Shown: piece by piece, positions 6,879 through 59,776 of the stretch | Layout: each line of letters begins with the position of its first letter | How positions within the stretch are numbered: the stretch's first letter is position 1 | Source: Candidatus Stammera capleta | GTDB lineage: Bacteria > Pseudomonadota > Gammaproteobacteria > Enterobacterales > Enterobacteriaceae | Assembly: GCA_036689325.1 (NCBI GenBank) | Contig: CP144793.1 | Coordinates: 159,578 to 223,577, forward strand | Reading direction: 5' to 3' | Length of the DNA: 64,000 nt | Position numbers and translations under genes: made by a program | The notes under the pieces: model-generated | The model's database searches: none | Told to the model about the DNA's origin: nothing | The model's input: the letters and a program-made list of their open reading frames with translations, nothing else

Positions 6879-8129
6879 ATGAAAAAAAATATTATTCAAA
6901 TACTTAATGAAAGAATGTTAATTTCACAAATATCTAATAAAAATAAATTAGATAAAATATTGCAAAAAAAAATTAACATATATTGTGGTTTTGATCCTAC
7001 CTATAAAAGTCTTCACCTAGGACACCTTATACCTCTTATAACAATGAAAAGATTTAAAAAACTTGGACATAATATATATATCTTAATAGGTGAAACTACA
7101 GCTATAATAGGTGACCCTAGTTACAAAAAAAAAGAAAGAATATCTCTTTCTAATAAAAAAATAATATTTTATGTTAAAAAAATAAAAAAACAAATAAAAA
7201 AAATATTAAAAATAAAAGATAATTCTATATTAAATAATAAAAAATGGCTTAACAAAATAAATATAATTTTTTTTTTAAAAAATATAGGTATTCACTTCAC
7301 AATTAATCAGATAATGAATAAAGAAGCAATAAAAAAAAGAATTAAAAAAAATCAAAAACACGTCACTTTTAGTGAAATATCATATAACATATTACAAAGT
7401 TATGATTTTTTATATTTATATAAAAAATATAACATTAAACTCCAAATAGGAGGTTCAGATCAATGGGGAAATATTACTTCTGGTATAAATTTAATCAATA
7501 AAAAAATAAAAAAAGAAACATTCGGTATAACTTTACCTTTAATGGTAAAAAATAACGGTGAAAAGTTTGGCAAAACAGAAAATAAAACTTTATGGTTAGA
7601 TAAAAATTTAACCTCACCATATAAATTTTATCAATTTTGGTTAAATATTCCTGACAATCAAGTAGAAATTTTTTTAAAACAATTAACCTTTATAAAAATA
7701 AAAAAAATAAAATATATTATAAAAAATAACAATTTTATCAAAAGCAAACAAATATTAGCTCAAAAAATAACAAAAATAGTACATGGTGAAAAAGAATACA
7801 AAAAAGCGTTACATATTACTAATATATTTTTTTTAAATATAAAAAAAAACAAAAATATAACACAAAAAAATTTAAAATTTTTATCTAAGCAAAATATTTC
7901 AAAAATAAAAACAAAAAAAAATATTTCTTTAAAAAACGCACTAGTTTTACTAAAAATAACTAAAACAAAAACACAATCTTTTAATTTAATTGTTAACAAC
8001 GCAATTTCTGTAAATAATAAAATAATTAATAATCCAAATTATAAATTTAAAAAACAAGATAAATTATATTTTAAATATACTATTATTAAAAAAAGTAAAA
8101 AAACATTTTCATTGATAATATGGGTTTAA
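6879..8129 (+). CDS. tyrS: tyrosine--tRNA ligase
   Basis: 416 aa. Contains the HIGH motif (SLHLGHLIPL), QIGGSDQWGNITSG, a KMSKS-like KFGKTE, and SPYKFYQFW. Confidence 0.96.
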   Translation: MKKNIIQILNERMLISQISNKNKLDKILQKKINIYCGFDPTYKSLHLGHLIPLITMKRFKKLGHNIYILIGETTAIIGDPSYKKKERISLSNKKIIFYVKKIKKQIKKILKIKDNSILNNKKWLNKINIIFFLKNIGIHFTINQIMNKEAIKKRIKKNQKHVTFSEISYNILQSYDFLYLYKKYNIKLQIGGSDQWGNITSGINLINKKIKKETFGITLPLMVKNNGEKFGKTENKTLWLDKNLTSPYKFYQFWLNIPDNQVEIFLKQLTFIKIKKIKYIIKNNNFIKSKQILAQKITKIVHGEKEYKKALHITNIFFLNIKKNKNITQKNLKFLSKQNISKIKTKKNISLKNALVLLKITKTKTQSFNLIVNNAISVNNKIINNPNYKFKKQDKLYFKYTIIKKSKKTFSLIIWV

Positions 8130-8150: not shown

Positions 8151-8907
8151 TTAATATCCTTCCACAAAAATATGTTGCCCTCTAATTAAATTAAACTTAT
8201 TCTTTAATAGTAAACAAATATTATCAATCATAACTATATTGCCACATATCATAAAATAATTGCTTTTATTATTAATTTGAACATTAATTAAATTTTCTAA
8301 ATATCCATTAAGAAGTAAACTATAAATTCTTCCACTTATAATAAAAAAATCATAATTATGATATTCTATATGTTCTCGACTAACAATATTTATACAAATA
8401 AAAAAATTTTTAGGATATAAATTTTTAATATAAAAAATACGATTTTTATAATTTAAATCACTATAATACCTTACTAAATTAACTAAAATTATTTTTTTAA
8501 ACTTAAAAAGTATTAATTTCCTATTACTAGTTAATATAGATAAAAATGGTGCTATAGCAGTTCCAGCACCAATCATCCATAATATATTATTTTTAGGTAT
8601 ATTATCTATTAGAAAATCACCATAGGCATTACATGAATTATAAATTATATCATTTACATTTAAATGAAAAAGTAAATTACTTAAACCTTGTTTCCTATTA
8701 TATATATAAAATTCTAATAATTTATCTTTATTAGAACTTACAATAGAATACTCTTTAAATAAAATCACTCCTTTATTATTTTTAATCCCTAATTTTAGAT
8801 ATTGTCCAGGATAAAAAGGAGTTTTTTTTTTTAATAAAAATAGTAAATAAATTATTTCTCCACCTAATAATTTTTTGTACTTTATTTAACACCCAATGAA
8901 ACAACAT
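8151..8907 (-). pseudogene. fpr: ferredoxin/flavodoxin-NADP+ reductase (Fpr). The gene is full length but split by a 1-nt frameshift inside an A11 tract, and may be rescued by slippage.
   Basis: The ORF track calls only 8151..8768 (GTG start; GAGTAIAPFLSIL NADP domain). Own translation from the ATG at 8907 gives MLFHWVLNKVQKIIRWRNNLFTIFIKKK, matching the E. coli Fpr N-terminus MADWVTGKVTKVQNWTDALFSLTV. After the A-run the conserved continuation TPFYPGQYLKLGIKNNKGVILFKEYS is in the next frame. Removing one A gives a 251-aa protein (E. coli Fpr is 248 aa). Confidence 0.85.
8822..8832 (-). repeat. homopolymer A11 in mRNA sense (T11 on the plus strand); this is the fpr frameshift site
   Basis: Counted directly: g at 8821, then 11 t at 8822..8832. 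The two conserved fpr reading frames meet here. Confidence 0.9.
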
Positions 8908-8921
8908 TATAAGCAAAACAT

Positions 8922-10241
8922 TTATTTTATAAAAGATTTAAAAATATTAAATCCACCATACAAACATTTATTACCTAATTCTTCTTCAATGCGAATTAAT
9001 CTATTATATTTTGATACTCTTTCAGATCTACTTAAAGAACCAGTCTTTATTTGCCCAGAATTAACTCCTACAGATAAATCAGCTATAGTGGTATCTTCAG
9101 TTTCTCCAGATCTATGAGAAACTATGACATTATAATTATTTTTTTTTGCTACACTTATAGTATTTAAAGTTTCTGTTAACGTTCCAACTTGATTTAATTT
9201 TATTAAAATAGAATTAGCAACTTTTGCATTTATACCTTTTTTTAAAAGAGATACATTAGTAACAAATAAATCATCACCAACAATTTGAATGTCTTTGTTT
9301 AATTTTTTAGTCAAGAAACAAAAACCTTCCCAATCATATTCACTTAAAGGATCCTCAACAGATAAAATAGGATAATCATTTACTAATTTAAATAAATATT
9401 CTATAAAATCATTAGAAGAATATTTTTTATTTTCTCCACTTAAGAAATAAGTTTTTTCTTTTAAAGAATAAAACTCAGAAGCAGCACAATCTAATGCTAA
9501 AAAAACATCTTTACCTACTATATAACCAGCTTTTTCTATAGCTTTTATAATTAACATAATAGCTTCTTCGTTAGAAGATAAATCTGGAGCATAACCACCC
9601 TCATCTCCTATAGAAATTTTTTTATTTGTGGATTTTAATAAATTTCCTAAAACATGAAATATTTCAGCACCTATTCTAATAGCATGACGAAAACTCTTAG
9701 CATTAACAGGTTGAATCATAAATTCTTGAATATCAATATTATTATCTGCGTGACACCCACCATTAATAATATTTATCATAGGTACAGGCATAATAAAATC
9801 ACATTTATTTTTATTATTATTATTACTAAATAAATTAAATATATATTTATATAAAGGTAATTTTAAAGAACATGCAGAAGCTTTTGCTACCGCTAAAGAA
9901 ACAGCTAGAATTGAATTGGCACCTAATTTTGATTTGTTTTCTGTACCATCAAAATCAATCATAATTTGATCTATTACAGATTGATCAAAAGAATGTAAAC
10001 CAATTATTTCTTTAGCAATGATATTATTGATAATAAAAACAGATTTCATAACACCTTTACCTAAAAATCTACTTGAATCATTATCACGTAACTCTAAAGC
10101 TTCAAAGGAACCAGTCGACGCGCCAGAAGGCACAATAGCTCTACCTACAGAACCATCACTTAAAGTAATTTCCGATTCTACAGTTGGAAAACCTCTTGAA
10201 TCTATTACTTCTCTACCTAAAACTTTTACTATTTTAATCAT
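8922..10241 (-). CDS. eno: enolase
   Basis: [22 protein letters not shown] aligns with the E. coli [22 protein letters not shown]. Also PSGASTGS and [15 protein letters not shown]. The ORF track extends to a TTG at 10253 (MGFNM); the ATG at 10241 fits homologs better. Confidence 0.96.
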
Positions 10242-10419
10242 ATTAAAACCCAATCAATTAATTATTTACAATTATGTAAAAATATTAAACATAAAATATT
10301 AATTATAATTATAAATTAAAAAAAAATTTTTGTATATAACGGTTAAAATCTTTAAATAAATAAAAGATTAAAAAATAAATATTATTGATTTTTATAAAAA
10401 ATTATATTACCATATTATT

Positions 10420-10491: not shown

Positions 10492-10885
10492 TTCAATTTA
10501 GTAAAATAAATAAAAAATTACAATACCTTTTTACAATAAAAAAATATTTTTTTTAAAACATAAAAAAGTATAAAAATTTTAAAAAAAAAAAAAAGGAACG
10601 CAAAAAAATAATAAAATATTTTAAAATAAAATTTAATAAAAAAACAAAAAGAAAATAAATTAAATAATAAATTAGACATTAGTATTTTTTTATACATTTT
10701 TAAAGTAACCTATTAATAAGAAATATTGAATATTATTATATTGTATAATAGAATAATTTTTAAAATAAAATTATGTTAAAATATTTAAATCATGTAAATA
10801 AAAATATACATTAAATAATTTAAAATTTTTAATTTAATTTAAAAATATTTTAACTTTATATATATAATTTATAAAAGATAATATT

Positions 10886-14765: not shown

Positions 14766-17171
14766 TTAAATATCAATATTTACTACATCAAGAGCATACT
14801 TTTGAATAAATGTTTTTCTAGGTACAACTTCATCACCCATTAAAATCTTAAACAAAGAGTTAGCTTTTTTAACATCATCTATCAAAACTTTAAGTAAAAC
14901 TCTGTTTTTGGGATTCATTGTAGTATCCCATAATTGAATAGGATTCATTTCTCCCAAACCTTTATATCTTTGTATAAAAATATATTTTTTAGAAAACTCT
15001 AAAACAAAATTGATAAATATATAAAAATTATTAAAATAATACTTTTTATTTTTTAAATAGATATAAAATTTTTTAAATTTATTTAAAAAAAACAATGCAT
15101 TAGATAAAGACAGTAATTTATTATAATAAGAACTTAAAAAAAATTTTTTACTCAAAAATATTTTTTTCTTTAAAAAATTTTTTAAAAATAAAAACTTAAA
15201 ACCATAAAAAATACTGTTTTTTTTATAACACACTACACCAGTTATTTTATGTTTTAAACAATTTTTATTTAATAAATATATAAAATCTTTTAACCACTTA
15301 CTAACATTTGACAAATCTAATTTTTTAAAAAACATTAATTTATTTAAAATAAAATCAGTTAAAACACTTTGAGTTTTAAAAATAAAATTACTAACGGATA
15401 AATATACATATATATTATGTATCAATTTCTTGTTATTTAAAATAATTAATCTTTTATGGTATAAATCAATATCTTTAAAAGCAAAAGATAATTTATATTT
15501 AAGTAAATCGTTTTCATTTCTAACATAAAATTCTTTTTTACCTCTTTTAATTTTATATAAAGGAGGTTGAGCAATATACAAATTACCATTAGAAATTAAA
15601 TCTGTCATATATCTATAAAAAAAAGTTAATAATAATGTCCTAATATGTGCACCATCTATATCTGCATCTGTCATAATAATAATTTTATTATATTTTAACT
15701 TAGATAATTTTAATTGGTTTACATCTATTTCACTTTTTATCCCACAACCTAAAGAAGATATTAAAGTAATAATTTCTTGTGAAGATAAAACTTTATCTAA
15801 ACCAGATTTTTCAACATTAATTATTTTACCTTTTAAAGGTAAAACAGCTTGATTTTTTCTGTTTCTACCTTGTTTAGCAGAACCACCTGCAGAATCTCCT
15901 TCTACCAAAAATATTTCAGCATACTTAGGATTTTTTTCCTGACAATCAGCTAATTTACCTGAAATAACAGAACAATCTAACATATTTTTTTTACGAGATA
16001 TTTCTCTAGTTTTTTTTATAGCTTCTCTAATCTTGGAAGAATCAATAATTTTATTTATAATTAATTTACTATCAACAGGATGTTCCAAAAAAAAATCATA
16101 TAAATATTCAATTACTAAAGATTCTACTAAAGATCTCACCTCAGAAGAAATTAATTTATTTTTAGTTTGTGATAAAAATTTAGGATCAAACATTCTTAAA
16201 GAAATTACTGCTAATAATCCAATCCTTACATCTTCTCCAATAATATGAAATTTATTTTTAATACTTTTTAACTCTTGAGTAATAAAATTATTTATTGTTC
16301 TGGTTACTCCAGATTTAAAACCTGATAAATGAGTACCACCATCAATTTGTGGAATATTATTAGTAAAACAATATATCTCTTGCTTAAAAGAATGTAACCA
16401 TCTACATCCTATTTCTAAATAAAAATCTAATTTTTTATATTTAAAATAAAAAATATTTTCATGTATATGTCTTTTGTTTTTAGACAAAAAAATTAAAAAA
16501 GATTTAATACCATGTTTGTTTATATAAATTTCATTTTTATTTTTAATTTTATCTAATATACTTAAACATAATCCAGGATTTAAAAAAGATAATTGTTGTA
16601 ATCTACGTGCTAAAAAACAATAATTAAAACATAATATACCAGAAAAAATCTTTTTATCTGGCCAAAATCTAATATAAGTACCATTTTTATTAGTCTGTCC
16701 AATTACAGATAATGTTGTGTTAGGAACACCATGACAGTAAATTTGATAATATATTTTACCATCACGATATATTTTTAATTCTAATTTTTTAGATAACGCA
16801 TTAACAACAGACACACCAACCCCATGTAAACCACCTGAAACTTTATAAGAATAATTATCAAATTTACCACCAGAATGTAAAACTGTCATGATTAATTCAA
16901 CAGCTGGTATACCTTCTTCTTGATGAATATCTACTGGTATTCCTCTACCATCATCTTGAACAGAAATAGAACCATCTTGATATAAAATAACATTTATATT
17001 TTTACAAAAACCAGCTAAAGATTCATCAATAGAATTATCTAATAATTCAAAAACCATATGATGTAACCCAGTACCATCATCAGTGTTACCTATATACATA
17101 CCTGGTCTTTTACGTACCGCTTCTAAACCTTTTAATACTTTTATATTAGAAGCATTATAAGAATTTAACAA
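14766..17171 (-). CDS. gyrB: DNA gyrase subunit B
   Basis: 801 aa. LNSYNASNIKVLKGLEAVRKRPGMYIG, HHMVFELLDNSIDE, EGDSAGGSAKQGR and PLKGKIINVE. The start is TTG, aligned with the E. coli Met1 and preceded by GAGGT (17176..17180). Confidence 0.97.
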   Translation of the reverse strand: MLNSYNASNIKVLKGLEAVRKRPGMYIGNTDDGTGLHHMVFELLDNSIDESLAGFCKNINVILYQDGSISVQDDGRGIPVDIHQEEGIPAVELIMTVLHSGGKFDNYSYKVSGGLHGVGVSVVNALSKKLELKIYRDGKIYYQIYCHGVPNTTLSVIGQTNKNGTYIRFWPDKKIFSGILCFNYCFLARRLQQLSFLNPGLCLSILDKIKNKNEIYINKHGIKSFLIFLSKNKRHIHENIFYFKYKKLDFYLEIGCRWLHSFKQEIYCFTNNIPQIDGGTHLSGFKSGVTRTINNFITQELKSIKNKFHIIGEDVRIGLLAVISLRMFDPKFLSQTKNKLISSEVRSLVESLVIEYLYDFFLEHPVDSKLIINKIIDSSKIREAIKKTREISRKKNMLDCSVISGKLADCQEKNPKYAEIFLVEGDSAGGSAKQGRNRKNQAVLPLKGKIINVEKSGLDKVLSSQEIITLISSLGCGIKSEIDVNQLKLSKLKYNKIIIMTDADIDGAHIRTLLLTFFYRYMTDLISNGNLYIAQPPLYKIKRGKKEFYVRNENDLLKYKLSFAFKDIDLYHKRLIILNNKKLIHNIYVYLSVSNFIFKTQSVLTDFILNKLMFFKKLDLSNVSKWLKDFIYLLNKNCLKHKITGVVCYKKNSIFYGFKFLFLKNFLKKKIFLSKKFFLSSYYNKLLSLSNALFFLNKFKKFYIYLKNKKYYFNNFYIFINFVLEFSKKYIFIQRYKGLGEMNPIQLWDTTMNPKNRVLLKVLIDDVKKANSLFKILMGDEVVPRKTFIQKYALDVVNIDI

Positions 17172-17211
17172 AATAACCTCACTTAAAAAAAATTAAAATT
17201 AAAAACAAAAA

Positions 17212-18336
17212 TTATATTTTTATTGGCATAACCATATGATTAATATATATATTTTTTAGATCAACAAATTTTACTATACTAAATTTATCCTTAAAATAAA
17301 AACGTATAAATGAAGACTCTTTTATTAAATTAATAATATCTAATATATATCTAATATTAAAGGTAATTTTTAAGTTTATATTGTTATTAATAATTATTTT
17401 CTCTACAGATTCATCATTATTAAAATTATTAGTTAATATTTTTAATATATTCTTTTTTAGAACGAATGTTACATAATTAAAAGTATCATCAACTATAATT
17501 GATGATCTGATTATAGCATTTTTAAAAATCAAACCATCAAAATCAACAAAATAATAATCTTTTATATTAATGATCACATTAAAATTAGGAAAAGTACCAT
17601 TTATTAAATTAGAATATATAATATATTTATTTATACATATTTGTATTTTATTAACACTAATCTTAAACAAAATTTGTTCATCATGTTTTATAAAAAGACA
17701 AAATTTAAACAACTCAAAAACTAATTTTTTAGGTAAAATAAAACAAAAATTATGTTTTTTTTTTATTATAAAATATTTAGGTTTTAATTGATAAACAGAC
17801 ATCCTATAACTATCCGTAGTTACAAAAAAACAAAATTTATTATTTTCTATTAACATACCATTTAAAAAATGATGTATATTTTGATTACTCATAGCAAAAC
17901 AAACAGAACTAATAATTTTTTTTAACAAAAAAGAAGAAATAATTAACTTATTTTTAACTTTAAAATTTTTATCAAAAAATGGAAAATTTGAAGGAGTAAT
18001 AGTAGATAAATAAAAAACACTACTTAAATAAGAAATCTTTAATCTTTTATTATATAAAAAAAATAATAAATCACTATTTTTAGGAAAAGTTTTACATAAT
18101 GTATATAATTTACGAATATTTACAGTTATTACTCCACAAGATATTATATTTTGTTTTAAGACACTAGTGGTAAAACTAATTTCTACATTTAAATCAGTAA
18201 TAACAAATAATAAAACATCTTTTTTTAAAGATATTAAAACATTAGAAAATATAGGATTTTGTGTGCTAAAAGGTAAATAATTACTTAATTTACTTAAAGG
18301 TTTTAATATTACTTCTTTTTTAATAAAAAATTTCAT
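17212..18336 (-). CDS. dnaN: DNA polymerase III beta sliding clamp
   Basis: 374 aa. MKFFIKKEVILKPL, YLNGMLIE, TDSYRMS, GTFPNF and the C-terminal MVMPIKI are collinear with E. coli DnaN. Confidence 0.93.
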   Translation of the reverse strand: MKFFIKKEVILKPLSKLSNYLPFSTQNPIFSNVLISLKKDVLLFVITDLNVEISFTTSVLKQNIISCGVITVNIRKLYTLCKTFPKNSDLLFFLYNKRLKISYLSSVFYLSTITPSNFPFFDKNFKVKNKLIISSFLLKKIISSVCFAMSNQNIHHFLNGMLIENNKFCFFVTTDSYRMSVYQLKPKYFIIKKKHNFCFILPKKLVFELFKFCLFIKHDEQILFKISVNKIQICINKYIIYSNLINGTFPNFNVIINIKDYYFVDFDGLIFKNAIIRSSIIVDDTFNYVTFVLKKNILKILTNNFNNDESVEKIIINNNINLKITFNIRYILDIINLIKESSFIRFYFKDKFSIVKFVDLKNIYINHMVMPIKI

Positions 18337-18810
18337 CTTTACAAATAAACATAAAATAATTAAATAATATAATATAATTAAAATTTTAAAATTATTTTTA
18401 AAATAATTTTAATCAATAAAAATTTTTAAAAATTTTGAAATAAAATTAAGAGTATTAAATTAAATATCGTTATATAATATTAAACTTAGTCTTTCTAAAG
18501 ATACATTATATAAATAAATAAAATATATAAATATATAATTATATATGATATATAATAGAAAATAAACACAAATATATTGATTTAATATATTTAAAAAATA
18601 CATATTTAAACACAAAATATCATCAAATTTAACTTTAAATAAAAACTTTAAAATTTTTGCAAAAATATATTTCTAAACATAAAAAAATATATATTTGATT
18701 TTATTAAAACACTTAACAATGTTTACATAAAAAAACAATAAAAAACTATTTATATAATAAAATCTATATATAATATTTATTATAAATAAAAATTTAAAAA
18801 AACATAAAAA

Positions 18811-18936
18811 ATGAAAAGAACATTTCAACCATCAAATATAAAAAAAAAAAGAACCCACGGTTTTAGATTAAGAATGTCCACAAAAAATGGTAGAAAAATA
18901 CTTAATAACAAAAGAAAAAAAAATAAAAAAAAATAA
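18811..18936 (+). CDS. rpmH: 50S ribosomal protein L34
   Basis: Not in the ORF track (41 aa). Own translation: [41 protein letters not shown], compared with E. coli [31 protein letters not shown]. Confidence 0.9.
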
Positions 18937-20729: not shown

Positions 20730-22089
20730 CAAAGAAACAATATTTGCTCAATCTACTCCAATTGGAAATGGAGGTATAGGAATAATTAAAATATCAGGCA
20801 AAAAATCTAAACAAATAGCAATTAAAATATTAGGTAAAATACCTAAAACAAGATATGCTGAATACCTTAAATTTAAAAATATTAAAGGAAAAATAATAGA
20901 TTTCGGTATAGCTATTTATTATAAAAAACCAAATTCTTATACTGGTGAAGATATATTAGAATTACATACTCATGGAGGTCAAAAAATAATAGAAACTATT
21001 ATAGAAAATATAATCAAATTAAAAATTAAAAACACAAGAATCGCAAAACCAGGAGAATTTACAGAAAGAGCTTTTTTAAATAAAAAAATTAATCTAATAC
21101 AAGCTGAATCTATTCATAATATGATTTATGCTAATTCTAAATATGAACTATATTCAGCAATAAAATCATTTCAAGGAAAATCATCTAAAAAAATAAAATT
21201 TTTAATAAAAAAAATAAAAAAAGTTAATATTTTATTAGAAAAAGAAATAAATTTTACAGAACAAGACAACCAAGAATTACATAAAAAAATAAAATTAGAT
21301 ATTAAATCTATATATAAACATTTTAAATTAACATACAAAATTTTCAAAAAAAATAAAAATATAAATAATAATAATTTTAAAATTATAATTGTAGGACAAC
21401 CCAATGTAGGTAAATCAAGTTTAATGAATAAAATAACAAATAAAAAAACATCTATAGTTACTAATATACCAGGTACAACAAGAGATATTATTAAAGAATA
21501 TTTTTATATAAAAAATATCCCTATACAAATTACAGATACTGCTGGTATACACAAAACTAATAATAAAATAGAAATATTAGGTATAAAAAAAATATGGAAA
21601 CAAATTAAACAAACTCAAATTATATTATTTTTAACTGATGCTAGAAATATAAACGAACAAAATATTATACAAGAATATAACAATATAATTAATATAAAAA
21701 AAAATAAAATTATATTTTTAATAAGAAATAAAATTGATTTAACACAAGAAAAATTTAAAATTAAAAAAAAAAAAAAATATATTATTATAAATATATCTAT
21801 TAAAAACAATATAGGAATAAAAAAAATATTAAATATAATAAAAAAAAAAATAAAAAAAATAAATAATACTGAAAATAATTTTATTGTTCACAAAAGACAA
21901 ATAATATTAATGAAAAAATCTCTTAAATATATTCAATTTATATACAATAATAATCATATTAGTTTAGATATTATTTTAGAATATTTATTATTAAGTCAAC
22001 AAAAATTAGAAGAATTATTAGGTAAAAACATTACAAATTCAAATAAAATCCTAAAAAATATATTCTCTAAATTTTGCGTAGGTAAATAA
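20722..22089 (+). CDS. mnmE: tRNA modification GTPase MnmE
   Basis: 455 aa. ETIFAQSTPIGNGGIGIIKISG, GQPNVGKSSLMN, DTAG and the C-terminal FCVGK. Confidence 0.95.
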   Translation: MVNKETIFAQSTPIGNGGIGIIKISGKKSKQIAIKILGKIPKTRYAEYLKFKNIKGKIIDFGIAIYYKKPNSYTGEDILELHTHGGQKIIETIIENIIKLKIKNTRIAKPGEFTERAFLNKKINLIQAESIHNMIYANSKYELYSAIKSFQGKSSKKIKFLIKKIKKVNILLEKEINFTEQDNQELHKKIKLDIKSIYKHFKLTYKIFKKNKNINNNNFKIIIVGQPNVGKSSLMNKITNKKTSIVTNIPGTTRDIIKEYFYIKNIPIQITDTAGIHKTNNKIEILGIKKIWKQIKQTQIILFLTDARNINEQNIIQEYNNIINIKKNKIIFLIRNKIDLTQEKFKIKKKKKYIIINISIKNNIGIKKILNIIKKKIKKINNTENNFIVHKRQIILMKKSLKYIQFIYNNNHISLDIILEYLLLSQQKLEELLGKNITNSNKILKNIFSKFCVGK

Positions 22090-23565: not shown

Positions 23566-24984
23566 TTATTGCTCTAATATTTTTTGAAATAATTTAGTCA
23601 AATTATATTTCGCATCTCCTAATAATATTCTAGAATTTTTATTAGAAAATAATGGATTATAAATATTAGTATAACCAGTATTTAAATTTACACTTCTTTT
23701 TAAAATAATTAGTTTTTTACTTTCCCATACTTTTAAAACAGGCATAGTATATAAAGAACATTTTTTATCATAACAAGCTCTAGGATTAACTATATCACTA
23801 GCGCCAATAATTATAACTAAATCGGTATTTTTAAAATAACTATTTATATCATGTAAATTATAGATAGTGTTACTATCTATACGAGCTTCAGATAATAAAA
23901 TATTCATATGTCCAGGTAATCTTCCAGCTACTGGGTGTATAGCAAATCTTATTTTTTTTACTGAAAACTTTTTTCTTAAAATATTTATAATATCACTAAC
24001 TATAAAATGAGCTTGAGATATTGCCATGCCATAACCAGGAACAATAATAATAGATTGAGCAGACATTGTTTCTCTTACTACTTCATTAATATTAATAAAA
24101 TTAAAGACTGTATTTCTTTTTAAATTTAACTTCTTTTTATATAATTTTATTCCTTTAAAACAAAAAAAACCACTAAAAATAACTTTTAACACTGATTGTT
24201 TCATGGATTTACACATTTCATGTGCTAAAAAAAACCCAGAAAACCCGACAATAGATCCTATAACAATTAGTAAATTATTTTTTAATAAAAAACCAGAAAA
24301 CATTGCAGACCAACCTGAACAGGAATTTAAGATAGATATAAAAATAGGAATATTAGAAGATTTAACATTACTTATTAAGTTAATACCTAAAATTAAACTA
24401 CACATAAATATAATGAAAAAACACAATATTATATTTTTAAAAGTAGATAAACTTAAAAAAATCAAACATAATATTAATAATATAATAATATTTATATATT
24501 TTATATTTTTGTTGTTAATATAAAAATTTTTCAAAAAATAACTATTATTAGTTAATATAAAATATGAAAAAGCAGAACAAATAAAAGTTATACTACTAGT
24601 GACATTATTTAAATAAAGTTCAAACAAATAAAATTTAGTTAAATAATTTTTCAAAATATATAATGTATATATATCATTTATACTTATTAAAAATGATGAT
24701 AAACCAACAAAACTATGTAAAATTGCTATTAGTTCTGGAATATTAATAATAGTAATATTTCTACAAAAATAAAAACTTAAAAATATTCCTATTAATAAAA
24801 TTAACACAGTAAATAAAAATGTAAAAATTTTACATATTAGCAATAAATTTATTATTAATGAAATTAAAATACCTATAACACCTAAAATAAAACTAAAAAA
24901 AATACTTTTTTTAGAAAAATAATAAAAACAAAAAACACAAAATAAAATAGAAAAAACATCAAATATATAAAAATATTTGGTCAT
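23566..24984 (-). CDS. pntB: NAD(P) transhydrogenase subunit beta
   Basis: 472 aa. PELIAILHSFVGLS, PGYGMAISQAH, HPVAGRLPGHMNILLSEA and GDAK. Confidence 0.95.
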   Translation of the reverse strand: MTKYFYIFDVFSILFCVFCFYYFSKKSIFFSFILGVIGILISLIINLLLICKIFTFLFTVLILLIGIFLSFYFCRNITIINIPELIAILHSFVGLSSFLISINDIYTLYILKNYLTKFYLFELYLNNVTSSITFICSAFSYFILTNNSYFLKNFYINNKNIKYINIIILLILCLIFLSLSTFKNIILCFFIIFMCSLILGINLISNVKSSNIPIFISILNSCSGWSAMFSGFLLKNNLLIVIGSIVGFSGFFLAHEMCKSMKQSVLKVIFSGFFCFKGIKLYKKKLNLKRNTVFNFININEVVRETMSAQSIIIVPGYGMAISQAHFIVSDIINILRKKFSVKKIRFAIHPVAGRLPGHMNILLSEARIDSNTIYNLHDINSYFKNTDLVIIIGASDIVNPRACYDKKCSLYTMPVLKVWESKKLIILKRSVNLNTGYTNIYNPLFSNKNSRILLGDAKYNLTKLFQKILEQ

Positions 24985-25002
24985 ATAAATACCATCTATA
25001 AA

Positions 25003-26472
25003 TCATTGTTTATAATTAATAATTTTTATCATTTTGTATGTAATAAAAAAACCTGAAAATATACTTATACTAGATAATAAAAGAGACATTAAAGATATTA
25101 AATTAACATAACAATTATCAAACATACTAAGTTGTATTAAAGAACCCACAGCTATTATCCCTGAAATAGCATTAGTAAATGATATTAAAGGTGTATGTAG
25201 AAAAAAATCTATTTTACTAATAGTAATATATCCTATAATAAAAGAAAATAACAATATCACAAAATAATATAATATATTTAAATTATTAAAACCATATAAA
25301 GGAGGTATAAATAATAGAAATATAAAAATAAACATAACTAAAGGAAAGATACTAATTTTCTTTAAACAATATTTTACAAAATCATTTTGTTTTTTATATT
25401 TTAAATTTTTTATACTTTGAATATTTTTTCTGTATGTACCTTGTGTTGTTAACAAAATATTACTTTCTCCTAATTTTTTTAACAACGCAAATATATTATT
25501 AATATCATTACTATATAATAATTTAATAAAATTTATTATATTATTACTGTATAATTCAGAAGTTAAACTTGGCATTAAATTAGAAAAATCTAAATATCCT
25601 AAAATATGAACTTTATTTTTATAAAAATAACATTTATTCAAAACAGATAATTCACAATTACCTCCATTTCTCATAGCAAGATCTACTATTACACTATTTT
25701 TTTTCATAAGTTTAATTATATTTAAAGTTATTAAATTAGGACATTTAAATGTTTTTTTAAAACTAGAAACACAACAAATAATTATATCAAAATTATGTAT
25801 TTCCTTTAATAAATACATATTTAAATCATTTAAAAATAAAAATTTTGCACCTAAACTCTTTGCAGATTTACTACTATTTTTATTTATATCATAACAAAAA
25901 ACTTCAGCACCTAAAGATTTGGCAACACTGACAGCCGATAAACCTGCAATACTCATTCCTAAAATTAACACTTTAGCACAAGGTGTCTCTCCTGCAGCAG
26001 TTATTTGTCTAGAAAAAAATCTTTTATATATATATATAGCTTCAATTACCGCTCTATAACCAGCAACATTAGAAATAGAACTTAATACATCAAAAGATTG
26101 ACTACTAGATGTTCGAGAAAGATTATCTAAACTAATTAAAGTTATCTGTTTTTTGATAAATATATTTTTATAATTTTCATAATTATCTTCAAAAGACAAA
26201 CAAATAACAATACTATTATGAAGCAAATATTTAAAAAAAAAATTATAAAAATATATTCCAATAATAATATTGCTTTTTAAAACAGTAACATAATCGGTAA
26301 CTATAGCACCATACTTTTTATATTCTTCGTTACTAAAACCAGCTAATAAACCAGCATTTTTTTGTATATTAACTAAAAAACCTAATTTACATAAAATTTG
26401 CACAGATTTAGGTATTAATGAAACACGATTTTCTCCCAAACATTTTTCTTTAATAACTCCTAAAGTTATCAT
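25003..26472 (-). CDS. pntA: NAD(P) transhydrogenase subunit alpha
   Basis: 489 aa. SSQSFDVLSSISNVAGYRAVIEA, QITAAG, VDLAMRNGGNCE and HTPLISFTNAISGIIAVG. Confidence 0.95.
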   Translation of the reverse strand: MITLGVIKEKCLGENRVSLIPKSVQILCKLGFLVNIQKNAGLLAGFSNEEYKKYGAIVTDYVTVLKSNIIIGIYFYNFFFKYLLHNSIVICLSFEDNYENYKNIFIKKQITLISLDNLSRTSSSQSFDVLSSISNVAGYRAVIEAIYIYKRFFSRQITAAGETPCAKVLILGMSIAGLSAVSVAKSLGAEVFCYDINKNSSKSAKSLGAKFLFLNDLNMYLLKEIHNFDIIICCVSSFKKTFKCPNLITLNIIKLMKKNSVIVDLAMRNGGNCELSVLNKCYFYKNKVHILGYLDFSNLMPSLTSELYSNNIINFIKLLYSNDINNIFALLKKLGESNILLTTQGTYRKNIQSIKNLKYKKQNDFVKYCLKKISIFPLVMFIFIFLLFIPPLYGFNNLNILYYFVILLFSFIIGYITISKIDFFLHTPLISFTNAISGIIAVGSLIQLSMFDNCYVNLISLMSLLLSSISIFSGFFITYKMIKIINYKQ

Positions 26473-29742: not shown

Positions 29743-30694
29743 AAATATTTTATACATATATAGAAAATATATTTTAAAAATTAAATCTAATAAAATAATT
29801 ATCAAAAATAATAAAATAATTTACATAGATAAAAATATTCATTATGACGTTATAAAAAATACAAAAAAAACAATACATTTTTTAAATATAAAAAAAAATC
29901 ATAATCCATTATATATAATAAATGTTATAAATAGTAAAAAAAAAGACTTCTTTTTTAAAATAAATATAAACAAAAATATAAATACATTCATATTAGAGCA
30001 TAATTTATGTTTAAAAAAAACAAATAAAATAAATTTTTTTAATTTCAAAAACAATATAAAAATAAAAAAACATTCTCATATTACTTATATAAGAATAATT
30101 TACTTAAACAAATCTACTTCCTATAGATTAAAAGAAAATATAAAAATAAATAAATCTTCTTTTAAACAATATAATTTTGCTCTAAAATATAAAAAAATAC
30201 ATATTAAAATTAAATATTTTTTAAACAAATCTAATTTAGACATACAAAATTTTACTCTTTTACAAACTAAAAACAAATACAAATATATAAATAAAATATT
30301 ACAAACACAATCTATTAGCAAACAAAAACATAAAAACATATTTTCGGGAAAAAAAAATTATTATACATTTACAGGATTAACTTCAATAAAAAAAAAATCT
30401 ATAGCAAAAACAATTATTAAAAATTTATGTTTTAATAATAAAAAACCATCAATTAAAATATCTCCAAAATTTTCTATATATAATCAATATAGTAATTGTA
30501 AACATAAAGTAACAACAATTAAAATTAAAAAAGAACATATTTTTTATTTATTAAGTAGAGGTTTAAGTTTTGACATTAGTATTAAGATACTTTTACTCTG
30601 TTTTATAAAAAAAGATATAAAAAAAATCCAAAAATATAATAAAATACATAAATATATAGATAACATAATAACAAAACACATAAATATAAAATGA
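29717..30694 (+). CDS. sufD: Fe-S cluster assembly protein SufD (shortened)
   Basis: 325 aa (E. coli SufD is 423 aa). It sits between sufC and sufS and has the conserved C-terminal EHIFYLLSRGL. Confidence 0.8.
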   Translation: MIALYQKNKNILYIYRKYILKIKSNKIIIKNNKIIYIDKNIHYDVIKNTKKTIHFLNIKKNHNPLYIINVINSKKKDFFFKININKNINTFILEHNLCLKKTNKINFFNFKNNIKIKKHSHITYIRIIYLNKSTSYRLKENIKINKSSFKQYNFALKYKKIHIKIKYFLNKSNLDIQNFTLLQTKNKYKYINKILQTQSISKQKHKNIFSGKKNYYTFTGLTSIKKKSIAKTIIKNLCFNNKKPSIKISPKFSIYNQYSNCKHKVTTIKIKKEHIFYLLSRGLSFDISIKILLLCFIKKDIKKIQKYNKIHKYIDNIITKHINIK

Positions 30695-35716: not shown

Positions 35717-37174
35717 ATGAAAAGGATGTTAATAAATGCTAATCAAAAAGAAGAATTACGAATAGCTTTAGTAGATGGACAAAAATTGTATGATTTAAAT
35801 ATAGAAAATACAGTAAATAAAAAAAAAAAACTAAATATATACAAAGGTATAATAACAAAAATTGAACCAAGTTTAGAAGCTGTATTTGTAGATTATGGTT
35901 CAAAAAAACATGGTTTTTTACCATTTAAAGAAATATCAGAAGAATATATTATAAATAAAAATAACAAAAACATAAATAATTTATATGTAGGACAAAAAAT
36001 AGTTGTTCAAATAAACAAAGAACAAAGAAAAAATAAAGGTGCTTTTTTAACTACGTTTGTGAGTTTAGTAGGAAATTACCTAATATTAATGCCAAATAAT
36101 TTTAATTTAGAAGGTATATCTAGAAAAATAGAAGGTCATAATAGATTAAAAATAAAAAAAATTTTACCTCATTTAAAAATACCTAAAAATATGGGAGTAA
36201 TTATTAGAACATCAGGTATAGGTAAATCTATTAAAATATTTAAATGGGATTTAGCGATAAGATTAAAGTATTGGAAATATATACAAAAAAAAGTAAAAAA
36301 TAAAAATGCTCCATGTTTAATACATCAAGAAAACAATATTTTAACACGCATATTTAAAGATTATTTATATTATGATATAAAACAAATAATAATAGATAAT
36401 AAAAAAATTTATACACTTTCTAAGAATTATTTAAATAAATTAGGCAAAAAAAATTTTTATAAAGAAATAAAATATTACGACAAAAAAATACCTTTATTTA
36501 ATTACTATCAAATAGAATCACAAATATTATCTGCATATAAAAAAGAAATAAGATTACCTTCAGGTGGATCTATTATTATAGAAACAACAGAAGCTTTAAC
36601 AACAATAGATATTAATTCATCAAAATATACAAAAGAAACAGATATAGAAAAAACAGCATTAAACACTAATTTAGAAGCAATAGAAGAAATAACAAAACAA
36701 TTACGTCTAAGAAATATAAGTGGTTTAATAGTAATAGATTGTATCGATATGTCAAGCACAAAAAACAAAAAAATTGTTAAAAAAAAAATCCAAAAAAAAA
36801 CCAAAAAAGACAAAGCAAAAATAAAAATTGGCTCTATATCTAAATTTGGTTTATTAGAAATGTCTAGACAAAGATTACATTATTCATTGCAAGAGTCATG
36901 TTATCATAAATGTTTAAAATGTCAAGGAATAGGAATAATAAGAAATATTGAATCATTATCTTTGTCAATACTTAGAAAACTAGAAAATATATTATTAAAA
37001 AAAAATATTAAAGAAATAGATTTAAATACTTCCCTTAAAGTTACTTTATATTTACTTAATAAAAAAAGAAAATATCTATATCAAATAGAAAAAAATTTTA
37101 AAACAAAAATAAACATTAATTATAGCAAAAAAATAAAAGATTCTAATTTTTTAATTAAAATTAAAAAATGTTAA
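35717..37174 (+). CDS. rne: ribonuclease E, catalytic N-terminal half only
   Basis: 485 aa (E. coli RNase E is 1061 aa). MKRMLINANQKEELRIALVDGQKLYDLNIE is nearly identical to the E. coli N-terminus. Also IYKGIITKIEPSLEAVFVDYG, TEALTTIDINS, FGLLEMSRQR and the CLKCQGIG zinc link. Confidence 0.93.
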   Translation: MKRMLINANQKEELRIALVDGQKLYDLNIENTVNKKKKLNIYKGIITKIEPSLEAVFVDYGSKKHGFLPFKEISEEYIINKNNKNINNLYVGQKIVVQINKEQRKNKGAFLTTFVSLVGNYLILMPNNFNLEGISRKIEGHNRLKIKKILPHLKIPKNMGVIIRTSGIGKSIKIFKWDLAIRLKYWKYIQKKVKNKNAPCLIHQENNILTRIFKDYLYYDIKQIIIDNKKIYTLSKNYLNKLGKKNFYKEIKYYDKKIPLFNYYQIESQILSAYKKEIRLPSGGSIIIETTEALTTIDINSSKYTKETDIEKTALNTNLEAIEEITKQLRLRNISGLIVIDCIDMSSTKNKKIVKKKIQKKTKKDKAKIKIGSISKFGLLEMSRQRLHYSLQESCYHKCLKCQGIGIIRNIESLSLSILRKLENILLKKNIKEIDLNTSLKVTLYLLNKKRKYLYQIEKNFKTKININYSKKIKDSNFLIKIKKC

Positions 37175-37248: not shown

Positions 37249-39684
37249 ATGTATAATCATAAAAAAATAGAAAAAAAAATTCAACAACAACACACACAAA
37301 ACAAAAAATTTATAAAAAAAAAAAAATATTATTGTTTATGTATGTTACCTTATCCTTCAGGAAATTTACATATGGGACATGTGAGAAATTATGTTATAGG
37401 AGATATAATAACTAGATATCAAATATTAAAAAATAAAAATGTATTACATCCTATAGGATGGGATGCTTTTGGTTTGCCAGCAGAAAACGCAGCAATCAAA
37501 AAAAATATTTCACCATATAAATGGGTGATAAATAATATTTATAAAATGAAAAAACAACTTAAAAAATTAGGAATAAAATTTAATTGGGAAAAAGAAATTA
37601 CAACATGTGATAGTAAATATTACAAATGGGAACAATGGCTATTTATAACTTTATTTAATCAAAAATTAATATACAAAAAAAAAGCTTTAGTTAATTGGTG
37701 TAATCAAGATAAAACTGTATTAGCTAATGAACAAGTAATAAATGGCAAGTGTTGGAGATGTTATTCAACAGTATATTATAAATATATATCACAATGGTTC
37801 ATAAAAACCAAAAAATATGCTAATAAATTATTAAAAGGAATAAAAAAACTAAAAAATTGGCCTAAAAAAGTTAAAGAAATGCAAAAAAATTGGATAGGAA
37901 AATCTAAAGGACTAGAAATATTATTTTATATACCTAATTTTAAATATAAATTATATATTTATACTTCTAACAAAAAACTAATTAATAATCCTCGATGTAT
38001 ATCGATATCACAATATCACGATTTTATACAAAATAATATAAATAAAAAAACATTAAATAAAATTAATAATCAAAAATTTTTAACCCAAAAAAACAATTAT
38101 ATTGGTTTTGATACTCATATAAAAGCAATAAATCCTATTAATAATAAAATTATACCTATATGGATAACTAATTTTACTGAACAATTATATAATACTCAAG
38201 TTATTTTAATATTTTCTAATGTTTATAAAAAACATGATTATTTTTTAAAAAAATATCATTTATTAAATAAAACTTATAAAGAATTTAATTGTTTTAAAAA
38301 TATTAAAACATCTAAATATATAAAAAAAAAAACTCATTTTAAATTAAAAGATTGGGTAATATCTAGACAAAGATACTGGGGTGTACCAATTCCTATTATA
38401 AAAAAAAACAATAAATCATTTCCTGTAAAAATAAAAAAATTACCTATTAAATTACCTTTGAATTTAAAAATTAAAAATTCCAATTTAAACCCCCTTAGAA
38501 ATAATAAAAAATGGAGAAATATTTTTATAAGCAAAAATATAAAAATAAAAAGAGAAACTGATACTTTTGATACTTTTATAGAGTCATCATGGTACTATGT
38601 TAGATATACTTCACCTAATTATAATAATGGTATTTTTGATGTTAAAAAAGCAAATTATTGGTTACCAATAGATGTATATATAGGTGGAATAGAACATGCA
38701 ACAATGCATCTTATATATTTTAGATTAATGCACAAAATATTTAATGATTTAAAATTAATAAAATGTAAAGAACCAGCAAAAAAAATTATATGTCAAGGTA
38801 TGATACTTTCAAACACGTTTTTTTATTTTAAAAAAAATAAAAAAATATGGGTTAATTATAAAAATATTAAAAAACATAAAGATAAAAATGAATTTTATTT
38901 AAAAAAAAATAAAAAAATTAAAGTATATAGTGCCGGAATAAGTAAAATGTCAAAATCTAAAAAAAACGGAATTAATCCAAACCAAATAATTAAAAAATAT
39001 GGTGCAGATACTTTAAGGTTATACATTATTTTTTTAGCACCAGTAGAAAAAAATGTAGTTTGGGAAGATAAAGGAATAAAAGGATGTCATAGATTTTTAC
39101 ATCGTTTATTTAAATTAGTTATAAAATATAAAAACAAAAATTTTAAAAAAAATATTATATTAAAAAAAAATATAAACAGTGAATACCTAATTATAAAAGA
39201 GAAAATACTTTATATAATAAAAAATATGCAATTACAAAAAAATTTTAATGTTATTATTGCAAAAATTATGGAAATTAATAATTTTTTAATTAAAAATATT
39301 AACTATGAAAATAACAAAAAAAGATTAAAACAAAATATTAATAAATTACTAATAATGATTAATCCTTTCACACCACATATAAGTATTTACTTATGGAATA
39401 AAATAAATAAAAACAAAAAAATGTTATGGTCTGATTTACATAAAAATAATCTTAAAACAAAACATAAAAGCTATATTATTATTGTACAAGTAAATGGAAT
39501 AAAACGAGGTTTAATAAAACTAAAAAAACAATATGAACAAAAAAAAATAGAATCTAAAATAAAAAAAAAACAAATCTTAGATAAATATTTAGCAAATAAA
39601 AAACATACAATAATTAAAATAATATATATAAAAAATAAAGTGATTAATTTTGTAATAAATTTTCATGATAATAATAAAATATAA
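37249..39684 (+). CDS. leuS: leucine--tRNA ligase
   Basis: 811 aa. PYPSGNLHMGHVRNY (HIGH), GWDAFGLPAENAA, DWVISRQRYWG and KMSKSKKNG. Confidence 0.97.
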   Translation: MYNHKKIEKKIQQQHTQNKKFIKKKKYYCLCMLPYPSGNLHMGHVRNYVIGDIITRYQILKNKNVLHPIGWDAFGLPAENAAIKKNISPYKWVINNIYKMKKQLKKLGIKFNWEKEITTCDSKYYKWEQWLFITLFNQKLIYKKKALVNWCNQDKTVLANEQVINGKCWRCYSTVYYKYISQWFIKTKKYANKLLKGIKKLKNWPKKVKEMQKNWIGKSKGLEILFYIPNFKYKLYIYTSNKKLINNPRCISISQYHDFIQNNINKKTLNKINNQKFLTQKNNYIGFDTHIKAINPINNKIIPIWITNFTEQLYNTQVILIFSNVYKKHDYFLKKYHLLNKTYKEFNCFKNIKTSKYIKKKTHFKLKDWVISRQRYWGVPIPIIKKNNKSFPVKIKKLPIKLPLNLKIKNSNLNPLRNNKKWRNIFISKNIKIKRETDTFDTFIESSWYYVRYTSPNYNNGIFDVKKANYWLPIDVYIGGIEHATMHLIYFRLMHKIFNDLKLIKCKEPAKKIICQGMILSNTFFYFKKNKKIWVNYKNIKKHKDKNEFYLKKNKKIKVYSAGISKMSKSKKNGINPNQIIKKYGADTLRLYIIFLAPVEKNVVWEDKGIKGCHRFLHRLFKLVIKYKNKNFKKNIILKKNINSEYLIIKEKILYIIKNMQLQKNFNVIIAKIMEINNFLIKNINYENNKKRLKQNINKLLIMINPFTPHISIYLWNKINKNKKMLWSDLHKNNLKTKHKSYIIIVQVNGIKRGLIKLKKQYEQKKIESKIKKKQILDKYLANKKHTIIKIIYIKNKVINFVINFHDNNKI

Positions 39685-40372
39685 AAATTTTTTTAATAAA
39701 AATAATATAAACAAAAAATATAAATATTATTTTCTTGTAGGTAATAATAATTATTGTAAAAATATATGTAAAATCAAGATAATAAAAAAATATTTTACAA
39801 CAGAAAATGTAAAAAAATACTATTTTATAATAGATAAAAAATTTAAATGGAATAAAATCAACAAAAACATTAATAATATAAGTTTATTATATAAGTATAA
39901 ATTATTCGTGTTAAATTTTATTGAAAAAATAAATAAACTAAAAGATATCTTGAATATTTATATAAATAATCAACATAATAATAATATATTTTTTATATTT
40001 AATTTGGAATTTTCAATATATATTAATAAAATATCTTTTAATAACAATAATATAATATATATTAATTGTTCTAATCATAAAGAAAGTAAAAATTATATTA
40101 CATATAATAATAAATATAACAATATGTTTAAATTTGTAAAATTTTTAAAAAAAAAAAATATTAAATTTATAAAATACTTAAGAAAATTACAAAAAGATAA
40201 TACTCCCAAAATAATGTTCATTACTATGATATATAATTTTTTAAAAAAAATAAAAACAAAAAAAAATTTTTTTAACACTTTACAAAAATATGAAATAAAA
40301 ATAAAAAAAAATTTAAATCCCTCATGGAAGGAATTAGAAATTATTATCTTAAAAATTATTAACTATATTTAA
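39665..40372 (+). CDS. holA: DNA polymerase III delta subunit (shortened, divergent)
   Basis: 235 aa (E. coli HolA is 343 aa). It lies just after leuS as in E. coli (leuS-lptE-holA). The N-terminus MIIIKY......YYFLVGNNNY compares with MIRLYP......AYLLLGNDPLL, and SWKELEIIILKI near the C-terminus with VWAELEGLSLLL. Similarity is low, so the call rests partly on synteny. Confidence 0.6.
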   Translation: MIIIKYKNFFNKNNINKKYKYYFLVGNNNYCKNICKIKIIKKYFTTENVKKYYFIIDKKFKWNKINKNINNISLLYKYKLFVLNFIEKINKLKDILNIYINNQHNNNIFFIFNLEFSIYINKISFNNNNIIYINCSNHKESKNYITYNNKYNNMFKFVKFLKKKNIKFIKYLRKLQKDNTPKIMFITMIYNFLKKIKTKKNFFNTLQKYEIKIKKNLNPSWKELEIIILKIINYI

Positions 40373-42229
40373 ATTATTTGTAATATTGCTATAGTATTGA
40401 TTAAATTTGCTTATTGTAAATAATAATATTTCTTTTTTAGCATAAATAATTACTTTTTGTTTAGACCTAGTTATAGCTGTATAAATTAATTTACTATTTA
40501 AAATAGGTACATAAATATCAGGTAAAATTAACAATACTGTATTAAATTCTGAACCTTGAGATTTATGAACCGTTATAGCCCATGAATTTTCCCAATAAAG
40601 TAAACTATTAGGATGTATAAATAAATTAGATAAATTAGATTTAGGAAACAACACCTTTAATTTATCTTCTTTATCCAACACAAAAAAACCTAAATCTCCA
40701 TTAAATAAATTTAAATCAATATTGTTTTTCAATATAATAATTGGTTCTCCTAAAAAATGATAACAACTATGAAAATAATAATAATGAATTATTTTTATAA
40801 AATTAGATTTTAAAAAATAACTTTTAATTAACCTATTAAAACAATTAACACCAAACATAGTATCACGTAATACACAAATTAACTGAAATTTAGCGTAAAA
40901 ATCACCAATTTTAGAAAAATCACTTTTTAAATTCATAACATAAAGAATATATCTTTGGTAATATTTAAGACATTTTTTTAATACAAAATCATAATTAAAT
41001 TTATTAGCATCATAAAAATTTAAATTATTAGAGAAATTATGTTCTTTTAAAAATAAATCTATTTTTTTAACATTACCTATATTAATCATACTAGATAATT
41101 TAAATAAAAAAGATTTTTTTAAAAAACGATAATTATATTTTAAAAAACAAATATTATAATTTTTTAATATTTTTATAATACTTATATAAGCAAAATTTTT
41201 CTTACTTTGATTATTATAAATTATTTTAAAGAAATTACAGATTTTACTTTTTCCACAAATTTCATTAAATAAAGAACCAGCTTCAATAGAACCAATTTGG
41301 TTATGATCACCAACTAAAATAATTTTTGCTTTATTATTTAAAGCAGATAATATATAATAAAAAGTTGTTAAATCCACCATAGAACATTCATCTATTATAA
41401 AAACATCACAATTTAATTGATAATCTCTATTATATTTAATGGTATTGTTATAAAAATTAAACCCTAATACTTTATGTATAGTATATGCTTGTTGAGGTAA
41501 TATTTCTCTTAAAGAACAATTAATATCTAAAGTATTATAAAAATTATTTAAATACTTAGTTAAATAAGAAGCAGATTTACCTGTAGGTGTAACAACACAA
41601 ATAGAATCTTTACTTTTAAGATGTAAGAATTTATATAAAATTAAAATTAATTTAGATATTAAAGTGGTTTTTCCAGTACCTGGTCCACCTGAAATAACAC
41701 AAAACTTATTAAATAAACATAAATAAATACAAAATTTTTGAAAAACATCAAAATTAAAATTATTTAAATATTTATTTAAAATTAAAAAATTTTTTTTTGT
41801 AAAAAAATATTTTTTATAAATATTTTTATTAATATATGAAACAACATTTTGTTCATAAATATAAAATTTATATAAATAAATACAATTTTTATACAATATA
41901 AGAGGTGTTTTATTTTTTAAATAAGAAGAACTAATTATATTTAGTTGAAACAAAATATTAATACACTTAGGTATACTTAAAATAGAAAAAAAATAATTCA
42001 GAAAAGACAAAATATAAGCGTTATATATATTTTTTCCTAAAATTTCACAAACAGGTAAACATACATGTCCTAACCTATTTGACAAACTAACTATAGAAGT
42101 AAATAACACTCCTACATAAGAATATTTTTCTGATGATTTAAATAACTGTCCAAAATATACATCTATTAAACTCATTTCATTTTGTTTTAAACAATTAAAC
42201 AAAAATATATTAATTTTTTTATTAATCAT
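40349..42229 (-). CDS. recD: exodeoxyribonuclease V alpha subunit RecD
   Basis: 626 aa. GGPGTGKTT, DECSMVD, LVGDHNQ and AITVHKSQGSEF. There is an ATGA start/stop overlap with recB. Confidence 0.92.
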   Translation of the reverse strand: MINKKINIFLFNCLKQNEMSLIDVYFGQLFKSSEKYSYVGVLFTSIVSLSNRLGHVCLPVCEILGKNIYNAYILSFLNYFFSILSIPKCINILFQLNIISSSYLKNKTPLILYKNCIYLYKFYIYEQNVVSYINKNIYKKYFFTKKNFLILNKYLNNFNFDVFQKFCIYLCLFNKFCVISGGPGTGKTTLISKLILILYKFLHLKSKDSICVVTPTGKSASYLTKYLNNFYNTLDINCSLREILPQQAYTIHKVLGFNFYNNTIKYNRDYQLNCDVFIIDECSMVDLTTFYYILSALNNKAKIILVGDHNQIGSIEAGSLFNEICGKSKICNFFKIIYNNQSKKNFAYISIIKILKNYNICFLKYNYRFLKKSFLFKLSSMINIGNVKKIDLFLKEHNFSNNLNFYDANKFNYDFVLKKCLKYYQRYILYVMNLKSDFSKIGDFYAKFQLICVLRDTMFGVNCFNRLIKSYFLKSNFIKIIHYYYFHSCYHFLGEPIIILKNNIDLNLFNGDLGFFVLDKEDKLKVLFPKSNLSNLFIHPNSLLYWENSWAITVHKSQGSEFNTVLLILPDIYVPILNSKLIYTAITRSKQKVIIYAKKEILLFTISKFNQYYSNITNNLNIVNNF

Positions 42230-59730: not shown

Positions 59731-59776
59731 AATTATTAACCAATTATTAAATATTAACAAATTGTTAGTAAAAAAA

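Follow-up and report, generated by a model that had tools for sequence, protein, structure and literature searches.

The question raised by this locus is whether the fpr gene of a Stammera genome is truly split by one extra base in a run of adenines, as a candidate for rescue by slippage, or whether the gene is whole and the break resides in the deposited sequence. Stammera is a pectinolytic, extracellular symbiont of tortoise beetles. The window, that is, the whole stretch of 64,000 nucleotides that was analyzed, contains 50 genes, is 92.7% coding, and has a GC content of 15-22%.

A sequence-only reading had described fpr as complete but broken by a single-nucleotide frameshift within eleven adenines, and the layout that it gave was confirmed in each coordinate and each statement on the sequence (Table 1). 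The list of open reading frames holds nothing of fpr but a fragment of 205 aa that starts with GTG. On the minus strand, the frame opened by the ATG at 8907 begins with MLFHWVLNKVQKIIRWRNNLFTIFIKKK before it enters the eleven adenines (8832..8822), and it runs through them to the premature TAA. Its translation, MLFHWVLNKVQKIIRWRNNLFTIFIKKKNSFLSWTISKIRD followed by the stop, is the N-terminus of Fpr, and this piece aligns with Fpr of E. coli (PDB 1fdr) as had been stated. The adjacent frame is unbroken to the gene end at 8151, reads ...LLKKKTPFYPGQYLKLGIKNNKGVILFKEYS..., with the continuation also written KKKTPFYPGQYLKLGIKNNKGVILFKEYS..., and carries the remainder of Fpr. Between the upstream TAA and the GTG at 8768 this frame contains no ATG, GTG, or TTG, and therefore only the 205-aa fragment appears in the list. 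The fpr gene spans 757 nt if the extra A is counted and 756 nt with A10, the latter corresponding to 251 aa and a stop; FIKKKTPFYPGQYLK had been suggested as a peptide that spans the junction. The three lysines encoded by the tract fall in a variable loop (HAPVLPF in E. coli, xN-NIS in relatives).

Table 1. Coordinates of fpr, of its tract and stop codons, and of neighboring or functionally connected genes (positions within the window).
Feature	Position	Strand	Basis or remark
fpr, flavodoxin/ferredoxin-NADP+ reductase, complete coding region	8151..8907	-	translations, NF008178, PDB 1fdr/3fpk, identical 251-aa product P0003
A11 homopolymer in fpr (T11 on the plus strand)	8822..8832	-	encodes Lys26-Lys28 and the first base of Thr29
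Premature TAA of the ATG-8907 frame in the A11 version, preceded by 41 codons	8782..8784	-	
Upstream TAA in frame with Fpr residues 29-251	8886..8888	-	
GTG-started Fpr fragment of 205 aa	8151..8768	-	equals P0001, a protein of NCBI source
eno, enolase, directly upstream of fpr	8922..10253	-	part of the collinear block
tyrS, convergent with fpr	6879..8129	+	within the collinear block rplS-truA-eno-fpr-tyrS-pyk-gyrA
Flavodoxin gene, 173 aa, intact, redox partner of Fpr	61620..62141	-	PF00258; identical Logan gene L010 8800..9321
pntAB, intact, NADPH-generating	23566..26472		

At 90% identity, the 205-aa fragment clusters with one other protein only, which has 251 aa, comes from the Logan run SRR23946963, and is letter for letter the fusion that had been predicted for a tract of ten adenines. 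The respective Logan contig (L004) reads ATT-A10-CTCC at the tract, and its alignment with window positions 10594 to 1 has no mismatch and a single gap, the extra A. Six more contigs of this run were fetched through other proteins of the window. Together, the seven contigs span 60,463 of the 64,000 window bases without any mismatch and without any indel except for the A in fpr. The window contains 50 A/T tracts of at least 10 bases, 39 of which are spanned by Logan contigs, and the tract lengths in the two assemblies are equal in 38 cases, with the fpr tract as the lone exception. The agreement includes other tracts of 11 bases (A11 at 3853, 18840, 38322, and 52228, and T11 at 48464) as well as A10 tracts (for example, at 3486, 3967, and 19598).

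This comparison of A10 with A11 was made at the level of assemblies. We infer that SRR23946963 is a DNA run, because its contigs of 16-24 kb cross divergent intergenic regions (rluC/rne and ydjM/thrS) and the recBCD genes, which have a low expression; if the run were RNA, A10 could itself be a product of slippage. When the 205-aa fragment and the 41-aa N-terminal product were looked up as exact sequences, no record of the A11 variant turned up outside the NCBI genome. A literature search with the run accession retrieved no paper, and the supplement of the Stammera preprint names neither the run nor fpr. The headline of the sequence-only reading, according to which the gene is split and may be rescued by slippage, is thus unsupported, since the independent assembly has A10 and this is the sole difference. 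An error in homopolymer length, which had been set aside as the trivial alternative, is favored by the same observation. It had also been proposed that A10 in the genome would turn fpr into an ordinary gene and the break into an artefact of assembly. At the level of assemblies this is essentially what was found, though a real mixture of A10 and A11 is a serious alternative.

The protein encoded by the A10 version was compared with family profiles and structures. Its best match in NCBIfam is NF008178 (E = 1.3e-41, residues 4-240 on positions 3-231 of the 248-position profile), which beats the next family by 30 orders of magnitude. The score of 142.6 bits lies under the curated cutoff of 390 bits, as is to be expected of an extremely AT-biased symbiont protein, and the assignment to Fpr is based on best hit, coverage, motifs, and synteny rather than on that cutoff. 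In Pfam, NAD_binding_1 reaches 27.4 bits and is above its gathering score of 22, while FAD_binding_6 stays with 17.1 bits below its threshold of 21.1. Residues 4-237 align with residues 3-228 of E. coli Fpr in the structure 1fdr (E = 3e-30), and an alignment of residues 3-237 with 3fpk and 1fdr (E of about 1e-30) includes the piece upstream of the tract. These matches to solved structures leave no ambiguity. In an alignment with twelve homologues, W5 and F21 (at least 90%) as well as F31, G34, and Q35 are conserved on both sides of the junction.

The likeness to E. coli Fpr (PDB 1FDR; NF008178/PRK10926) comprises a similar length (251 vs. 248 aa), an end-to-end alignment, the two-domain FAD/NAD(P) architecture, the elements GTAIAP, SRE, GR, CGN, and the C-terminal Tyr, and a flavodoxin gene nearby. 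The two proteins differ in that they share only about 35% identity, that the composition is AT-driven here (K, N, I, F), that the Arg of the RxYS motif is replaced by Lys, and that the terminal Trp is absent. When the set of cofactor motifs RxYS/GTxIxP/SRE/GR/CGN/aromatic residue was inspected, GTAIAP, VSRE, SGRI, CGN, and the C-terminal Tyr were found to be kept. The FAD motif RxYS is present as KEYS and thus contains one unusual residue, but other AT-rich homologues, too, have Lys or another residue than Arg there, e.g., KMFS in P0005. Judged from motifs, coverage, and synteny, the predicted protein is an Fpr orthologue, and it looks functional but for the one extra base.

It might be argued that A11 is fixed and that fpr is a very recent pseudogene, caught before any further damage, and the exchange of Arg by Lys in KEYS would fit this idea, as would the report that a frameshift in a poly(A) tract is a typical way for gene erosion to begin in AT-rich symbionts (PMC3017870). 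We regard it as scarcely probable. The independent assembly carries the A10 allele, no second lesion was found in the 756 nt besides the extra A, and residues other than Arg at the RxYS position are seen elsewhere. The arginines that bind NADPH are better preserved here than in the Stammera orthologues. The flavodoxin gene is intact, which argues that fpr is still needed, and the alignments with homologues agree with the earlier view that both halves of the gene are conserved and that it does not have the look of a decaying pseudogene.

Close relatives of this Fpr are rare. A full HMMER search against 1.84 billion representatives yielded none above 44% identity, and a scan for relatives in JGI metagenomes came back empty. 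Apart from its own entry, a word-indexed search with the fragment retrieved a single Stammera protein. A scan of species-representative genomes retrieved only two chromosomes of Ca. Stammera capleta (CP144805.1 and CP043993.1), whose Fpr proteins have 40-42% identity; two other library proteins are marginally closer, with 43-44% identity. With 305,864 and 301,995 bp the two chromosomes have nearly the same size as the genome analyzed here (303,086 bp), and the gene order rplS-truA-eno-fpr-tyrS-pyk-gyrA, which is derived, is common to the window and both of them. Published Stammera genomes have sizes of 0.22-0.34 Mb and GC contents of 13.9-20.4% (PMC13462651), with which the values given here are compatible, and we infer that the window derives from this lineage.

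The two Stammera Fpr proteins are intact, have 244 aa, and contain LENNINSF or LKNNISSF at the loop, without a poly(A) tract in the gene, and a poly(A) tract at the loop is also absent from the other top homologues of Fpr. By the comparison of tract length with relatives, which had been put forward as a check, the tract is therefore no ancient, conserved frameshift site. A programmed ribosomal frameshift of the prfB or dnaX type was rejected because each orthologue is one continuous ORF that lacks the tract. An alternative genetic code was likewise rejected as the cause of the break, because the frame is closed prematurely by a TAA, and TGA serves as a stop in the window.

The code itself differs between the genomes: in the window UGG is Trp and UGA is a stop, whereas the Stammera relatives read UGA as Trp. 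ORFs of at least 150 aa in the window, counted from stop to stop, contain 144 TGG codons, and about 50 genes are intact under table 11. Five window genes end in TGA, including the ATGA overlaps of sufD/sufS (30691..30694) and recB/recD (42226..42229). By comparison, 6.7 kb of CP144805.1 and CP043993.1 contain 17-20 TGA and 2-4 TGG codons. This suggests a genome of the Stammera lineage without UGA reassignment, and such a genome would help to date the recoding.

Rescue of frameshifted genes by slippage is known from other insect symbionts. About 30% corrected transcripts have been reported for frameshifted genes in Buchnera and Blochmannia, and the frameshifts, which lie in poly(A) tracts, can be conserved between populations (Tamas et al., 2008, as summarized in PMC3017870); Blochmannia has 4-8 homopolymer-frameshifted genes per genome (PMC3017870). 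The locus resembles these cases in several respects: the symbiont genome is reduced and AT-rich, a poly(A) tract of at least 10 bases lies in a coding region, the shift amounts to 1 nt, and the gene is otherwise intact. Its A11 tract surpasses the approximately 9-10 bases of a coding A/T homopolymer that characterize the slippage class, the gene has just one lesion, and its two halves can be aligned with homologues. However, the frameshifts of Buchnera and Blochmannia are verified in the genome and several are conserved between populations or species, whereas the one in fpr is contradicted, at the assembly level, by the second assembly, and neither the frameshift nor the tract is shared by the Stammera orthologues or the top homologues. 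Hence, fpr is not a demonstrated slippage-rescued gene, because the genomic frameshift was not reproduced in the independent data.

If A11 were nevertheless fixed, full-length Fpr could stem from a minor share of the transcripts, in which slippage of the RNA polymerase has removed one A or added two, or from ribosomes that slide on the lysine codons. Ribosome sliding on poly(A) lysine runs might also leak. The length of the tract, the otherwise undamaged gene, the presence of the partner flavodoxin, and the precedents in Buchnera and Blochmannia, as recounted in PMC3017870, are in line with such a rescue. The A10 in the second, independent assembly of this strain and the N-N-I-S at the loop of the relatives, all of which lack the tract, speak against it. 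In addition, A11 would require a change of -1 or +2. Among the transcription errors of Buchnera, 151 of 157 insertions but only 16 of the 57 analyzed deletions fell into homopolymeric tracts, and in that study none of the errors was seen to bring a gene back into frame (PMC5574713). This rescue of a fixed A11 gene is very unlikely in our opinion. Even taken together, the two versions with a fixed A11 and a wrong Logan assembly, i.e., a gene that is rescued by slippage or freshly dead, are an unlikely solution. We are similarly skeptical, and slightly more so, about the broader notion that A11 is a real and persisting allele, either fixed or in a stable mixture with A10, from which Fpr is still made by transcriptional slippage or ribosome sliding.

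The other homopolymers of the window allow one to judge how exceptional the fpr tract is. Coding A/T tracts of at least 10 bases occur 47 times in 59 kb, 44 of them as A on the sense strand, and the longest is A15. All but one of the 47 are in frame, the tract in fpr being the only one out of frame. The A15 tract is at 21763..21777, and A14 tracts follow at 51807, 57844, and 58326. The Logan contigs end at tracts of A12-A15 and at one tRNA, and one contig trails into a T25 tail. Such breaks at long tracts are the ordinary behavior of de Bruijn graphs where the homopolymer length varies among the reads. Because the contigs break there, nothing in the sequence is less certain than the lengths of the A12-A15 tracts.

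All A/T tracts of at least 8 bases were also screened for a switch of frame, that is, for cases in which one ORF ends shortly after the tract and a second frame becomes open there. The screen gave seven hits, and only fpr is a real split. The other six were rejected as broken genes, because they represent gene boundaries or antisense noise (rpmH/rnpA, rplS/truA, pntA/pntB, antisense recC, and antisense infC-rpmI). The overlapping ORFs 58645-59847 and 59777-60940 are fbaA and pgk and were discarded as a candidate for a split gene. The assembly is not generally unreliable at homopolymers, and the extra A is an isolated event.

On this basis, the break in fpr is most likely a miscall of the assembly or a length variant that is not fixed. 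More specifically, we think it probable, though well short of certain, that a single base was miscalled in the consensus of the deposited genome and that A10 is the true or predominant state. In this case fpr would be an ordinary intact gene for 251 aa, with a lysine-coding tract of A10 in the organism. The eleventh A would be a miscalled length that entered the deposited 303-kb genome when this was assembled or curated, in a sequence context that is noisy in short reads, and it would at most represent a minor length variant. An fpr gene with A10 would be expressed normally and would not need any rescue. In favor of a miscall, an independent assembly of this strain contains the A10 fusion and deviates at this sole position, the frame is strictly held at the other coding tracts, so that one exception is what a rare miscall would be expected to leave, and the protein aligns end to end with Fpr structures and has kept its motifs, while flavodoxin and PntAB are intact. 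The published Stammera genomes were obtained from PCR-amplified Illumina PE150 libraries, which were assembled with MEGAHIT and manually curated for local errors (10.1101/2023.12.12.571295). Should the genome analyzed here belong to that set, such a workflow would make isolated homopolymer miscalls plausible. A point against a miscall is the agreement at 38 tracts, because two coverage-guided assemblers should have agreed also at fpr if the reads were cleanly A10, and their disagreement may reflect truly mixed reads.

This leads to the possibility that the population, consisting of pooled beetles and many genome copies, is a mixture of intact A10 and frameshifted A11 alleles of comparable frequency. 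Replication slippage at a hypermutable tract would have produced both lengths, each assembler would have taken a different branch, and the intact copies would supply the function. It is easier to understand that two assemblies are identical over 60 kb except for one A10/A11 site if both lengths are well represented, and the Logan breaks at A12-A15 could indicate that reads are heterogeneous in length at long tracts. It has also been reported that homopolymer indels are key events in the inactivation of genes in such symbionts (PMC3017870). Conversely, neither a contig nor a gene call with A11 is on record outside the NCBI genome, and the breaks at the longer tracts may be purely technical. We treat a mixture as a serious alternative, although it is less likely than a miscall. 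The weights that we assign to miscall, mixture, and fixed A11 are a matter of judgment and not of computation; they draw on the fact that nearly all tracts are in frame, on the 4-8 frameshifted genes of Blochmannia, and on the chance with which each state would give rise to the discrepancy.

Several further loci in the window also deviate from what is usual. The thrS gene (49694..50908, plus strand) encodes 404 aa that match positions 168-562 of the 565-position ThrRS model, and the N-terminal part is absent, with just 132 nt left to the upstream gene. By analogy with ThrRS of E. coli, the absent part presumably comprises the TGS and editing domains, and the predicted product appears to be a threonyl-tRNA synthetase that consists of the catalytic core only. 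At 14766..18936, rpmH (18811..18936, plus strand) is followed after a gap of 474 nt by dnaN (17212..18336, minus strand) and gyrB (14766..17171, minus strand). Both dnaA and recF are absent from this locus, and the usual arrangement rpmH/dnaA-dnaN-recF-gyrB is thus reduced. An ORF of 235 aa (39665..40372, plus strand) lies directly after leuS, and its end overlaps recD. It has no match in NCBIfam or Pfam and may be a very diverged remnant of holA or lptE. The RNase E/G gene (35717..37174, plus strand) encodes 485 aa with S1, catalytic, and Thio domains, and at this length the protein presumably lacks the long scaffold region with which RNase E of E. coli ends.

What the locus means for the biology of the symbiont depends on the state of the tract. 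If the A11 allele were real, it would be another case of a phenomenon that is already known, and if Fpr were made from it, the phenomenon of Buchnera and Blochmannia would be extended to the Stammera lineage, with fpr possibly being a length-variable locus whose dosage shifts with the length of the tract. A real mixture of A10 and A11 would illustrate, on a small scale, how slippage keeps mutating a coding tract, a process that has already been well described. With a miscall as the preferred reading, we regard fpr here as an ordinary gene. The locus is then above all a warning: in symbionts with less than 20% GC and about 50 homopolymers of at least 10 bases per 64 kb, the annotation of a gene as intact, truncated, or pseudogene hinges on the call of a single base. 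The protein of NCBI source represents only a 205-aa part of what is, as judged from its sequence, almost certainly a working reductase of 251 aa, and in this way gene contents and pseudogene counts would be distorted.
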